64,000 bases of DNA from Theionarchaea archaeon. GTDB lineage: Archaea > Methanobacteriota_B > Thermococci > Methanofastidiosales > SZ-28-30. Positions 2,736 through 23,531 of the stretch are shown one piece after another; position 1 is the first letter of the stretch; every line of letters begins with the position of its first letter. The position numbers and the translations under genes are program-made. The stretch lies in NCBI GenBank assembly GCA_018992685.1, contig JACVGT010000021.1, forward strand, positions 64,001 through 128,000, given 5' to 3'. The notes beneath the pieces were generated by a model, which saw only the letters and a program-made list of their open reading frames with translations, was not told where the DNA came from and did no database searches.

Positions 2736-3167
2736 CTAGTATTTTCTTCTGCCTCCAAAGAAGAGACCTGCTAAAATATCTCTCCGGGATCCGAGTGAAA
2801 GGCTTCGTGTGAAGCTCCTACTCTCCTCATACGTGAGTTTTTCTTTGCTTTCCTGAATTCCTTCTCTCCAGATCTGAAGCCCTTCTTCAATCTCCACCGT
2901 GTAAACCGGAATCTCTTTCTTCTCGGCAAATTCCAGGACAGTCCACACGCTGACAGTGTACTTGCCTTCCAGAGCGATTCCCACCACTGCCTGACACGTA
3001 GTTATTTCCTTTTTCCAGTCTCGTATTCTTTCTGAACTGAGTCTGGAGGGAGACACAATCTGTACATCCGTCCCTAACTTGGACTTGATCATCTCTTTTA
3101 CTGATGCTTCGGTCCGGGAATTGTAGGTAATTGGAGGAAGTATTAGGTAAATTGTTCTCTGTTGCAT
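2736..3167 (-). CDS. Hypothetical protein, nucleoside deoxyribosyltransferase/TIR-like alpha/beta fold
   Basis: 143-aa ORF with ATG after AGGGGA; pattern GKYTVSVWTVLEFAEKKEIPVY resembles the NDT-like helix-strand. Confidence 0.55.
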   Translation of the reverse strand: MQQRTIYLILPPITYNSRTEASVKEMIKSKLGTDVQIVSPSRLSSERIRDWKKEITTCQAVVGIALEGKYTVSVWTVLEFAEKKEIPVYTVEIEEGLQIWREGIQESKEKLTYEESRSFTRSLSLGSRRDILAGLFFGGRRKY

Positions 3168-17682: not shown

Positions 17683-18099
17683 CTATTCGCTGGAGATCAC
17701 TGTCTCCAAGAGCTGTCTTTCCGGATCTACAAGATCTTTTAAGGAAAATAGCCCTGTGATCTGTCCTCGTTCTGTGATGAGAACATGACGTATCTGGTGT
17801 TGTTGCATTAATTCAAGCACTTTAGATACGGGAGAGTCAATGTCAGTTGTGATGAGGTCCCTGGTCATGATGCTGGAAATGGGTTTAGCATAGGACAGTC
17901 CTTTAGCCACCACCCGCTCGATAACGTCCCCCTGGGTTAGGAATCCCACGACTCCTTCATTACACACTACCAGAGAACCTACCTTGAATTCCACCATTTT
18001 TCGACAGGCTTCCTGAATAGTTTCATGTTCAGATATGCCCACCAGTTTTCGTGTGGTGTACTGTCTGATGGGAACTGAAAGGTTATTAATATCATTCAT
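17683..18099 (-). CDS. CBS-pair domain protein
   Basis: Two CBS repeats (KVGSLVV...GFLTQGD; IRHVLI...GLFSLKD); overlaps the pgk2 stop. Confidence 0.88.
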   Translation of the reverse strand: MNDINNLSVPIRQYTTRKLVGISEHETIQEACRKMVEFKVGSLVVCNEGVVGFLTQGDVIERVVAKGLSYAKPISSIMTRDLITTDIDSPVSKVLELMQQHQIRHVLITERGQITGLFSLKDLVDPERQLLETVISSE

Positions 18100-18973
18100 C
18101 CGTTGCAGCCTCCTTTTGAAGTTGATCATACATTCTATTTAAGATTTGAGTGACTGTCTCCTCTAACGCTATATTTTCCAGAACCGGAACCCTCTCTCTA
18201 TTAGCCCTCCCTACGATGTGGTCTTGTATCTGCCTGATCTTGTCAATATTCTCAAGGTAGTGTTCTGGAGGTCTTCTGCTGTCCTTTGCTCGAGCATAGA
18301 ACCTGTTCACGTGTTCCTCTCTGTCACTGAGGGTAAGAACGAAATGAAATATCGTCCGATCCTGACGTTCAACATACCCAGGGACAAGATGAATTCCTTC
18401 CATTACAAGACTGAACCCCTCGGTCAGTGCTCTGTTGATTATGGCATTAATCCCCACAGCAACATGAGATACCTGAAGCTCAAAAGCATAGATCACTGCA
18501 CTCAAAAATGAAGAAGGAGCCTGAATTTCTTTCCATGCGGAAAATGAGGACGTGTGAAGAGTGGGGAGTAGATCCCGTGAGACCATTTTCCGCATGACCT
18601 CACGCACGACGTCTGTCCCAATAATGGAATGAATCCCCAGTCGATAGCTGATTTCAAAGGCTACCGTAGATTTCCCGATGCCTGTGGCACCTCCCAGAAG
18701 AACAACAAGTGACTGTTTTTTCTTTCTCAGTGAATGCCACATCTGGTAGAACGAGGCGATACGTGGGTACCCGTCATCTATCAGGATGTGGTAAGTCATG
18801 TCAGTGAGATCTTGTTCAGAGATCCGGGAGATTCCTGAGGTCACCATTCTCTGCCCAATTTCCTCTGCCATTTTGTAGGCCCTGTTCACATCCAGCCCTG
18901 CTTTCAACAAAGATCCGGCCAGGACACCCTTTGAAAATGGAGTTACATACTTCTTGCCTACTACTTCTATCGT
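18092..18973 (-). CDS. pgk2: 2-phosphoglycerate kinase (ATP-cone + P-loop); probable ACG start
   Basis: N-terminal PFSKGVLAGSL ATP-cone motif lies upstream of the first TTG; GGATGIGKS, GTDVVREVMR, EGIHLVPG; ACG at 18973 after SD GGAGGGGATC. Confidence 0.9.
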   Translation of the reverse strand, partial: TIEVVGKKYVTPFSKGVLAGSLLKAGLDVNRAYKMAEEIGQRMVTSGISRISEQDLTDMTYHILIDDGYPRIASFYQMWHSLRKKKQSLVVLLGGATGIGKSTVAFEISYRLGIHSIIGTDVVREVMRKMVSRDLLPTLHTSSFSAWKEIQAPSSFLSAVIYAFELQVSHVAVGINAIINRALTEGFSLVMEGIHLVPGYVERQDRTIFHFVLTLSDREEHVNRFYARAKDSRRPPEHYLENIDKIRQIQDHIVGRANRERVPVLENIALEETVTQILNRMYDQLQKEAATDE

Positions 18974-20313
18974 GTGATCCCCTCCTCAGCCTTTCTTGCC
19001 AGCTGGACAATGGCATCCTCCAAGCTGGTGACAGTTCCTCCTCGAAGGCGGGGAACGTTATCCATGAACACGACATTGCGGTCGAATTTCAAAGCCTCTC
19101 GCGTGGCCACATCAATGGCAGAGGCCTTTATTTCAGTAAGGAGAGTATCTGCCTGGGGAAGGAATTGGTTCAGGTCTTTCTTTAATCTCGGTCGATTAGA
19201 AAGATGGGGAGAAGCCTTTACTATTTCACAACTGAAGGTTTGTTCGAGGTAGGGTACCAGAGTAGATTCCAGGACTGAGGGGGGCGCCGTGGTAGCCAGG
19301 AATACTTTTCTACCTGAAATGTCTTTCAGGGGTACCGGCCTGAACACGCAGTGTGCCTGGGGGAGTTCGGGCTTGATTTCACTAATTGCTTTTTGCATCT
19401 CTGCCACTTTTTGCGGCGAAGCCATGGGTTCTTCACACATCATGAGGATGAGCAGATCGGCCATGAGAATTCTAAAGGGACCGAAGTACTCGTTGATGAA
19501 TTCCAATGGTTGATGCGCTCCTGCAATCACGATGCAGCAATCTGTATTCACAGGAGGGAAGGTGGTGCCTGACCCCTCTAGTATTACGAAGGTTGCTTCC
19601 AGTGTATTTGCCAGTTGGGCTCCTTTTTCCATATTAGATGAAAAAGGAACTCCAGCCATTCCACCACCACATCGCCTGCATCCGACTGTTGCTACGCGGG
19701 AAATAAGAGCATTCTCCCAGTGGTCTGACGCAGCGTGCTTTCCCTGATTTGCCTGTTTCAGTAGATACGAAGGAGTGAGTTCGATGGTGTCACCTCTGAT
19801 GATTTCGGGCTGAGCTGGACCTCCCCTTCCCATCGTCACAATCCAGGGAATATAACCTGAAGCCTTGAGTGTTCGGGCTATGTATCCCGAGACAGCAGTT
19901 TTTCCCACCCTCTTTGTTGTCCCCACCACGGAAAAACTGGGACGTTTCAGAATCTTTGGGTATCTTGGAGGTGTAAACAGGAAGTCTGATCCCTTGTATT
20001 GGACTCCTTCTTTCATGAGCGCACAGGCGAGATGTAACCTGCTGACGTAGTCCATAATCGGCTCGTCTGAAAGATCCACAACTTGCTCAATCTCATGAGC
20101 CGAGCAAGCTGTCACAATAACGTCGTGAATATCTCTTGACTGGTTTCCTCTGTAGATAGGAATATCAAGATGTGCTGTCAATTCCTCAATGCTACCGACT
20201 TTTTCCGTTCCTCCCAAGAAAACAGCAGCTCTCACGTCACCTTCAATAGTTGCCAACGCATCTTTCGTTACTGGTGGATAATGTTCGCCGTCTATGAGGG
20301 CAAGAATATTCAT
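18967..20313 (-). CDS. cpgS: Cyclic 2,3-diphosphoglycerate synthetase
   Basis: LIDGEHYPPV, GGTEK, DLSDEP, KRVGKTAVS, MGRGGP, HAASDH, GCRRCGGG, EGSG. Confidence 0.93.
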   Translation of the reverse strand: MNILALIDGEHYPPVTKDALATIEGDVRAAVFLGGTEKVGSIEELTAHLDIPIYRGNQSRDIHDVIVTACSAHEIEQVVDLSDEPIMDYVSRLHLACALMKEGVQYKGSDFLFTPPRYPKILKRPSFSVVGTTKRVGKTAVSGYIARTLKASGYIPWIVTMGRGGPAQPEIIRGDTIELTPSYLLKQANQGKHAASDHWENALISRVATVGCRRCGGGMAGVPFSSNMEKGAQLANTLEATFVILEGSGTTFPPVNTDCCIVIAGAHQPLEFINEYFGPFRILMADLLILMMCEEPMASPQKVAEMQKAISEIKPELPQAHCVFRPVPLKDISGRKVFLATTAPPSVLESTLVPYLEQTFSCEIVKASPHLSNRPRLKKDLNQFLPQADTLLTEIKASAIDVATREALKFDRNVVFMDNVPRLRGGTVTSLEDAIVQLARKAEEGITR

Positions 20314-20373
20314 CAAATGAACTTGTTTAGTATGTATTTAAGGGTTCGCTTGAGAAAGAAGGGACTTCTCATA

Positions 20374-22321: not shown

Positions 22322-22329
22322 GATAAGTG

Positions 22330-22998
22330 ATGCTTATGATTTCATCAGAACAACTTCTGGACGTACTGGGAAACGAAACACGGAGGATGATACTGGAACT
22401 GCTGGCAGAAAAGCCACGATATACTACAGAAATTGCCAGTTTGTTGAATATCGGTCAAAAGGCCATCAATGATCATCTCAAAATTATGTCTGACTTCGGC
22501 ATAATTGAGACGTACGTCCAAAAGCAGCAGAGAGGTTCTCCTCGAAAGTATTTCCAGGTCAATGAACGGTTCAAACTTGAATTTACATTGACTCCTGGAT
22601 TGTTCCGGATTTATGTGTTGGAACCTAGAAGTGATTGGAAATTCATCCTTGAGGAGTTTCCTGAGTTTAAAGAGCTGCAAAAAGAAGTGGAGCAAATACA
22701 GAAACTGAGGCAGATCGAGCAACATCGAAAGGTGTGCAGAGATCTGGTTCAAGAACTGGATCGACTGACACAGGCAAAAATGTATATTGAAAACCTGCTG
22801 GCAAGGACAAGAAAGCGGTGTATGATGATCATAGATTCTCTGGATCTGCCGCCTGTAGAGAGCAGGGTACTCTTTGAGGTGGTAACTGGAAAAGAAGGTC
22901 TCACTGTGGAGGGTATTGCTGAAAAGTGCAAAATTTCTACAGAAGAAACTGTACAGGCCCTGCAGAACCTGGAACAGAAAGGTGTGGTGAGATTATGA
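22330..22998 (+). CDS. ArsR-like wHTH heat-shock repressor (HSR1/Phr-like)
   Basis: LLDVLGNETRRMILELL, GQKAINDHLKIM, RGSPRKYF; coiled coil and second C-terminal HTH; first gene of a chaperone operon; exact start uncertain. Confidence 0.8.
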   Translation: MLMISSEQLLDVLGNETRRMILELLAEKPRYTTEIASLLNIGQKAINDHLKIMSDFGIIETYVQKQQRGSPRKYFQVNERFKLEFTLTPGLFRIYVLEPRSDWKFILEEFPEFKELQKEVEQIQKLRQIEQHRKVCRDLVQELDRLTQAKMYIENLLARTRKRCMMIIDSLDLPPVESRVLFEVVTGKEGLTVEGIAEKCKISTEETVQALQNLEQKGVVRL

Positions 22999-23531
22999 GT
23001 GTTATGTTCTGCGTGTATTGTGGGAATTATCTCTCGCAGACATGGCGGTACTGTCCATATTGTGGGAGGAAAATCTCAGGTGAATCAGAGTTGTTCGATG
23101 CTTTGTTCAGGAATGAGGTCAGGGGGATCAGCATTCAAATTATTTCAGGAGGCTTCAGAAGACAGGAGACGCGAAACAAGGCGGAACGATGGAGGATCCC
23201 TATTGAAGAATCCCAGGACAGGAATGAAGAGCATACCTTGAAGGTAAAGGACAGAAAGGGTGAACGCATCGGGGCTGAATCCCTCGTTGTGCCCAGGCGA
23301 GTTGAGGAGCCCGAAGGCAGGATTCACAGAATTGGGCAGCACTGGATAATCAGGGTTACTTTGCCTGGAGTCAGGAAAGAGAATATTGATGTACGAAAGC
23401 TGGAGACATCAATTGAAGTGAAGGCACACAAAAATGGTGAAGCATATTTTAGACAATTCGAAGTGCCAGAATCTGCACGAATCATCTCACAGCACATGGA
23501 AGGGGATGAACTCGTTGTAGAAGTGGGGTGA
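22995..23531 (+). CDS. Hsp20/alpha-crystallin-like protein with N-terminal zinc ribbon
   Basis: CVYCG...CPYCG; C-terminal EEPE..LPGVRKENIDV..IEVKA..LVVEV alpha-crystallin pattern; ATGA overlap. Confidence 0.75.
   Translation: MSVMFCVYCGNYLSQTWRYCPYCGRKISGESELFDALFRNEVRGISIQIISGGFRRQETRNKAERWRIPIEESQDRNEEHTLKVKDRKGERIGAESLVVPRRVEEPEGRIHRIGQHWIIRVTLPGVRKENIDVRKLETSIEVKAHKNGEAYFRQFEVPESARIISQHMEGDELVVEVG

Follow-up and report, generated by a model that had tools for sequence, protein, structure and literature searches.

In a 64,000-nucleotide stretch of DNA from a Theionarchaea archaeon (contig JACVGT010000021.1, positions 64,001 to 128,000; hereafter the window), the gene for 2-phosphoglycerate kinase (2PGK) follows cpgS, the gene for the synthetase (cDPGS) of cyclic 2,3-diphosphoglycerate, on the minus strand, and reading of the frame together with an alignment of orthologues showed that 2PGK has no canonical start codon that keeps its conserved N-terminus. 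The codon at the conserved start position is ACG. Comparison with related genomes supports the view that the window differs from the ancestral arrangement, a four-nucleotide stop/start overlap, by one transition at 18972, a base that serves the start codon as second letter and the stop codon as first letter. By its sequence, the junction has the anatomy of a textbook ATGA-coupled gene pair with a mutated start codon. We tentatively propose that the transition is real and that near-cognate initiation still yields full-length 2PGK, in smaller amounts, a reading that we rate a little short of even. The features at the junction are as follows.

18967..20313, minus strand: cpgS, 448 residues from the ATG at 20313, ending ...EEGITR, with the stop codon TAG at 18969-18967
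18092..18973, minus strand: 2PGK, conserved extent of 293 codons, with an ATP-cone and a P-loop kinase domain, 87-88% identity to P0001/L001
18986..18988, minus strand: in-frame TGA that shuts the 2PGK frame upstream, only four codons (GGA GGG GAT CAC) before the ACG
18976..18985, minus strand: Shine-Dalgarno (SD) site GGAGGGGATC, within the 3' end of cpgS
18971..18973, minus strand: ACG codon at the conserved 2PGK start position; the C at 18972 is the altered base of the putative ancestral ATGA
18967..18970, minus strand: ATAG, whose ATA (18970-18968) and new cpgS stop TAG overlap just as the start and stop do in ATGA
18908..18910, minus strand: TTG, the first canonical in-frame 2PGK start, codon 22 counting from the ACG
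18887..18889, minus strand: GTG, the next canonical in-frame 2PGK start, codon 29, where the public 265-residue protein P0002 begins

The minus strand from 18990 to 18961 reads GCTGAGGAGGGGATCACACGATAGAAGTAG. The 2PGK frame opens at 18985, immediately after the in-frame TGA, and runs to a stop codon at 18094-18092; its stop-to-stop translation begins G G D H T I E V V G K K Y V T P F S K G V L A G S. No ATG, GTG or TTG occurs in this frame from its opening down to the TTG at 18910. The cpgS frame closes with ACA, CGA and TAG. The ATA has two bases in common with this TAG, and the ACG lies three nucleotides further upstream, within cpgS; both would be non-canonical starts. An earlier note on this DNA, made from the sequence alone, had described the junction in the same terms, and its coordinates and codons were all correct on re-reading of the minus strand. 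Its statement that no canonical start precedes a TTG 21 codons on was borne out, and so was its remark that a single C-to-U change at 18972 would serve both genes at once, since C-to-T at this position gives ATG for 2PGK and TGA for cpgS. The other ATGA overlaps that it had listed are also present in the window, in rpoE'/spt4 (1970), dnaK/dnaJ (26013) and dph5/DUF357 (28358). A further ATGA overlap is found at 22327-23528 on the plus strand, where the gene for a 223-residue regulator with two helix-turn-helix domains (ArsR/TrmB-like) overlaps that for a 178-residue zinc-ribbon protein.

The protein encoded from the ACG onward is a 2PGK by profile comparison. The stop-to-stop open reading frame (ORF) matched NCBIfam NF003259 (2-phosphoglycerate kinase) with 367.4 bits against a cut-off of 343, passing the equivalog test, and the match spans residues 5-294 of the ORF and profile positions 5-297 of 306, so that it begins at the ACG residue. 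Pfam placed an ATP-cone at residues 12-89 and AAA_18 at residues 95-240, in agreement with the earlier claim that the conserved ATP-cone N-terminus is encoded at the ACG. NF008995 and NF008996, two families of P-loop kinases without an ATP-cone, matched residues 91-285 only. An AlphaFold2 model of 2PGK had a predicted local distance difference test score (pLDDT) of 90.8 and a predicted TM-score (pTM) of 0.83, and the kinase portion is similar to nucleoside-monophosphate kinases (target-normalised TM-scores of 0.5-0.64). The fold search with this model brought up P-loop kinases of a generic kind, along with a ribonucleotide reductase that bears an ATP-cone; a solved 2PGK structure was not among the matches. 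The cDPGS assignment of the upstream gene rests on homologues so named by their sources and on the precomputed database domain PF27272.1; our own Pfam and NCBIfam profile scans gave no match for the cpgS product.

When 2PGK orthologues were aligned, 28 of 29 started in the column of the window's ACG and the remaining one started one residue earlier. As stored, the first letters of the 28 are M in 24, V in one and L in three. The public database form of the window 2PGK (P0002) starts from the GTG at codon 29 and is without the first 28 conserved residues. As a control, we searched 14 other ORFs of the window that have at least 13 codons before their first canonical start against Pfam and NCBIfam. 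Eight of them had any match and none of the 14 had a family match clearly upstream of its first canonical start; the six without a match in either database are uninformative. The matches of dph5, V-ATPase subunit D and an HdrB-like protein run from the canonical start itself, and that of a GlcD-like protein begins two residues before the start, which we read as an alignment edge. Because no control ORF has a match clearly upstream of its start, the 2PGK case is singular in the window.

The junction was then compared across genomes in one scan of genome contigs that gave 80 loci, none of them identical to the window (best 87% identity). We counted a locus as evaluable when cpgS lay upstream on the same strand, its C-terminus was covered and the PFS motif of 2PGK was found. 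This left 42 loci; the 38 dropped comprise 14 without a cpgS match, 23 without a PFS motif in the first 130 residues and one with cpgS elsewhere. The closest locus, L001 (87% identity), has the junction GCTGAGGAGGAGGTTGCATGATAGACGTAG, an ATGA overlap followed directly by TAG in the cpgS frame, and the next, L002 (73% identity), has GGCAAGGGAGGTGTCTTCTTGATAGAAGTTG, where the overlap is TTGA and the TAG recurs. A four-nucleotide overlap occurs in 22 of the 42 evaluable loci (17 ATGA, 3 GTGA and 2 TTGA), a one-nucleotide overlap in two, and other short overlaps or gaps in 18; in the archaeal subset, the four-nucleotide cpgS-2PGK overlap is found in 18 of 25 loci. Comparison of the C-termini of P0125-P0128 showed that the three closest cDPGS proteins have 447 residues and end three residues past an EE motif, while the window cDPGS has 448 and ends four residues past it, with an extra Arg. 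The idea in the earlier note of a mutated ATGA is thus supported by the ATGA of L001, the TTGA of L002 and the 447-residue cDPGS proteins, whereas its heading that 2PGK starts at ACG is unsupported as stated, the ACG being unconserved.

A tandem stop, TGA then TAG in the cpgS frame, occupies 3014-3019 in both L001 and L002 and corresponds to 18967-18972 (minus strand) in the window. The TGA-TAG pair arises in the cpgS frame because 2PGK begins M-I-E/D (ATG ATA GAx), and this built-in tandem limits cpgS read-through in the window to one codon. Most Thermococci loci carry TGA followed by TAA here. In five Thermococcus loci (L021, L027, L029, L030 and L032), cpgS ends in another frame relative to 2PGK, with its stop 13 nucleotides downstream of the 2PGK ATG and an overlap of 17 nucleotides (8 to a second in-frame start) rather than four; the differing overlap implies that the junction has been remodelled more than once.

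The SD context of the conserved start position is undamaged. We take GGAGGTGATC to be the SD consensus, which matches the regions upstream of dnaK and DUF357; the window holds no rRNA that would give the host anti-SD, and an Rfam scan of the window found two tRNAs only (Arg-GCG and Gly-CCC). Against this presumed consensus, GGAGGGGATC matches 9 of 10 positions, a count unsurpassed in our sample of 19 starts in the window. The GGAGG core lies 7 nucleotides from the ACG, which is the commonest spacing in the window (four of 14 starts with a run of at least 4). The dnaK gene is one of the four, and the same 7-nucleotide register agrees with the equal spacing that had been noted before. The ATA follows the core by 10 nucleotides, inside the observed range of spacings. 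On the other hand, the only SD-like run for the TTG at codon 22 (TTG22) is a run of 4 located 16 nucleotides upstream, and the GTG at codon 29 (GTG29) has a weak SD with a run of 3.

The N-terminal codons of 2PGK are constrained like those further on. In the comparison of the window with L001, omega (the ratio of non-synonymous to synonymous substitution rates) is 0.057 for codons 2-28, with 13 synonymous and 4 non-synonymous differences, and is also 0.057 for codons 29-293. Residues K8, P12, F13, S14, G16 and S21, which are invariant in 30 sequences with the window included, are all intact. In the AlphaFold2 model, the two strands of the ATP-cone hairpin are residues 3-5 and 10-12 and the first helix is residues 15-25, all confidently modelled. 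Since the hairpin and the first helix fall in residues 3-25, a product started at TTG22 or GTG29 would be without an integral part of the ATP-cone domain, and by the model the TTG22 product would lose both hairpin strands and most of helix 1.

Taken together, these observations can be accommodated by a real T-to-C transition (coding strand) in the second letter of an ancestral ATGA shared by the TGA of cpgS and the ATG of 2PGK. In sequence, such a change leads cpgS to read CGA (Arg) and to stop one codon on at the pre-existing tandem TAG, and removes the canonical start of 2PGK with the SD intact. Full-length 2PGK would then still be made, at a lower level, through near-cognate initiation with the initiator tRNA. 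The intact SD in cpgS could position the small subunit over the ACG at the usual spacing. Alternatively, ribosomes that end cpgS at the TAG may restart on the overlapping ATA in a manner like the termination-reinitiation coupling at ATGA; because ATAG keeps the ATGA geometry, a ribosome terminating cpgS would sit at the usual place for restart. From the sequence, restart at ATA is no less plausible than restart at ACG. The initiator tRNA is expected to pair poorly with either, with a mismatch in the middle position at ACG and in the third position at AUA, and at best the enzyme level is likely much reduced. A stronger form of the proposal is that coupling and the strong SD relax the need for a particular start codon, so that restart at AUA (in AUAG) or ACG gives working amounts of full-length 2PGK; we consider this form rather unlikely.

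There is precedent for the steps involved. Fourteen pairs of overlapping genes from Haloferax volcanii and E. coli are reported to be coupled by termination-reinitiation, with variable dependence on an SD (PMC6728339). Ribosome profiling in H. volcanii is reported to have placed about 30% of putative alternative initiation sites at near-cognate codons, which the authors left out of account to keep false positives low (PMC7261190). In E. coli, GFP started at ACG is described as bearing an N-terminal Met, and initiation is classed at 0.1-1% of AUG for ACG and 1-2% for AUA (bioRxiv 10.1101/063800).

Other observations weigh against continued synthesis of full-length 2PGK from a near-cognate codon. 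The comparison of orthologue starts, which the earlier note had named as a check, gave no non-canonical start among the 29 aligned orthologues, and the ACG is conserved in none of them. Likewise, all 42 evaluable loci have a canonical start in frame ahead of the PFS motif, and the start loss is confined to the window lineage. The same E. coli study gives near-cognate yields of 0.01-3% of AUG (bioRxiv 10.1101/063800), and a review describes AUU as being rejected by aIF1 in an in-vitro system from Sulfolobus (PMC4705826). With synonymous divergence (dS) between the window and L001 at about 1.1-1.2, omega averages the whole path between the two lineages and therefore cannot date the mutation or separate a recent knockout from continued use. 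The count of unique residue changes (22 in the window lineage, 9 in P0001 and 20 in P0003) neither supports nor excludes relaxed constraint, the three sequences being nearly equidistant. These data are also compatible with an allele inactivated or weakened not long ago.

We therefore weighed near-cognate initiation against the possibility that the mutation is real and 2PGK has been lost or crippled, as a fresh null, as a strong hypomorph or as a truncated kinase made from TTG22 or GTG29, which without the ATP-cone hairpin would be unregulated or unstable. This has a sizeable share of the probability, well below half. It agrees with the confinement of the start loss to one lineage, with the weakness of near-cognate initiation where it has been measured (bioRxiv 10.1101/063800) and with the public gene call of the 265-residue GTG form, and the existence of the ATP-cone-less families NF008995 and NF008996 makes a truncated catalytic domain conceivable. 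It is opposed by the poor SD contexts of TTG22 and GTG29, by the loss of K8, P12, F13, S14, G16 and S21 together with both hairpin strands from a TTG22 product, and by the undamaged state of cpgS, the SD and the remainder of 2PGK. If instead the C at 18972 were an artefact of the assembly or consensus, or a minority variant among strains that the assembler chose, the organism would carry ATGA and a single base would account for everything; the source is evidently a metagenome-assembled genome of an uncultured lineage, as are all close matches. We consider this improbable. The exact 448-residue cDPGS ending in R (P0125) is listed on two contigs, the longest of 145,747 nucleotides, which are perhaps not independent data, and the exact truncated 2PGK call is found on a contig of 3,533 nucleotides, shorter than the window itself. 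The protein search returned no 293-residue form of 2PGK closer than 88% identity. Indirect evidence from these database contigs favours a real allele at 18972.

Recoding could in principle rescue the allele, either by a -1 frameshift close to the cpgS end that produces a cDPGS-2PGK fusion or by C-to-U editing of the mRNA that restores AUG and UGA, and the 2PGK frame is indeed open for four codons before the ACG, overlapping cpgS. As a whole we regard such rescue as very improbable. The cpgS frame has no slippery heptamer of the form X XXY YYZ at 18988-18967, and no stable RNA structure was found (fold z-score +0.77; of 200 shuffles, 155 fold equally well or better). None of the four longer relatives found is a cDPGS-2PGK fusion, which is a weak negative; three are fused to phosphoglycerate mutase domains and one is unrelated to cDPGS. 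On these three counts we rejected a programmed -1 frameshift or fusion. Start codons written as ACG in chloroplast genomes are edited to AUG, and they resemble the present case in having a genomic ACG at a conserved start position; we know of no mRNA C-to-U editing, and of no machinery for it, in archaea. Editing would restore both codons, and we hold it to be a marginal prospect, far less likely than near-cognate restart.

The proposed near-cognate restart has both likenesses to and differences from known systems. Like the ATGA-type termination-reinitiation pairs described for H. volcanii and E. coli (PMC6728339), the two genes are co-directional, here encode enzymes of the same pathway and have the SD inside the upstream gene. 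Relatives of the window carry ATGA, TTGA or GTGA, and the new ATAG keeps the stop/start geometry; unlike those pairs, the overlapping start is no longer ATG, GTG or TTG, and any coupling here would be by analogy. Among natural near-cognate starts in prokaryotes, E. coli infC starts at AUU. As with such starts, the window has a codon one base away from AUG, preceded by a good SD, in the place at which the orthologues begin; however, the known ones are conserved and often regulatory, whereas this ACG is confined to one lineage. We know of no natural ACG- or AUA-initiated archaeal gene, and keyword searches of the open-access literature found neither such a gene nor this locus. The top-ranked matches of a literature search did not include Theionarchaea and 2-phosphoglycerate kinase together.

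Downstream of 2PGK, the cluster continues with two further genes.

17683..18099, minus strand: CBS-pair gene, with its ATG at 18099, at the same position in L001 and L002
16068..17663, minus strand: gene for a 531-residue protein containing two stretches of metallophosphoesterase, where the synteny of the cluster ends

The order cpgS, 2PGK, CBS-pair gene and 531-residue metallophosphoesterase gene is identical in the window, L001 and L002. The end of 2PGK overlaps the start of the CBS-pair gene by 8 nucleotides (18092-18099, minus strand; ATGAATGA), with a GGAGG 9 nucleotides upstream, and by coordinates the same overlap occurs in L001 and L002. At the other end of the cluster, the ATG of cpgS is preceded by no SD-like run (best run 2; 20313-20345, minus strand), and an A/T-rich TTAAATACATA is located about 20-30 nucleotides upstream of this ATG. 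It looks like a putative TATA box of a leaderless or short-leader transcript, with cpgS as the first gene of the operon.

Cyclic 2,3-diphosphoglycerate (cDPG) is reported to be made from 2-phosphoglycerate (2PG) in two steps by 2PGK and cDPGS, through 2,3-diphosphoglycerate (2,3-DPG) (PMC12136491). The pathway from 2PG to 2,3-DPG to cDPG is the same as that of the 2PGK and cDPG synthetase of Methanothermus fervidus (PMC12136491; PMC10690619); the M. fervidus system belongs to a hyperthermophilic methanogen, while the host here is a relative of Theionarchaea/Methanofastidiosia whose enzymes are predicted from their genes. Both proteins have their closest relatives in metagenome-assembled genomes of Theionarchaea and Methanofastidiosia, where the identities of 2PGK are 88% and 84%. 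It has been stated that cDPG occurs exclusively in hyperthermophilic methanogens (PMC10690619). Homologues of cpgS and 2PGK, often as neighbours, are found in many genomes of Actinomycetota, Coriobacteriia and Trueperaceae and in Hodarchaeota (loci L036-L078). In three proteins of 795-797 residues (P0122, P0123 and P0124), a 2PGK-like part is joined to phosphoglycerate mutase domains (PF10143, PF01676), a fusion that combines the consecutive steps from 3-phosphoglycerate to 2PG and from 2PG to 2,3-DPG.

Because P0002 is called from an internal GTG, automated annotation hides the start-codon problem. Gene callers cut 2PGK to 265 residues, and pathway reconstructions may score the enzyme as aberrant or miss its ATP-cone. 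The finding is modest unless expression is demonstrated, and if the allele is dead or an artefact, it would be an ordinary start-codon loss in one metagenome-assembled genome. If coupled near-cognate restart is true, 2PGK would be, to our knowledge, the first archaeal gene found in nature to be initiated at ACG or AUA, and a case in which a single mutation moves a stop codon and converts a start codon, killing neither gene. If the allele is real and expressed, the junction would provide a natural test of how important start-codon fidelity is for archaeal genes translated by termination-reinitiation, and of how a shared stop/start overlap is protected from a single mutation by tandem stops and an SD.

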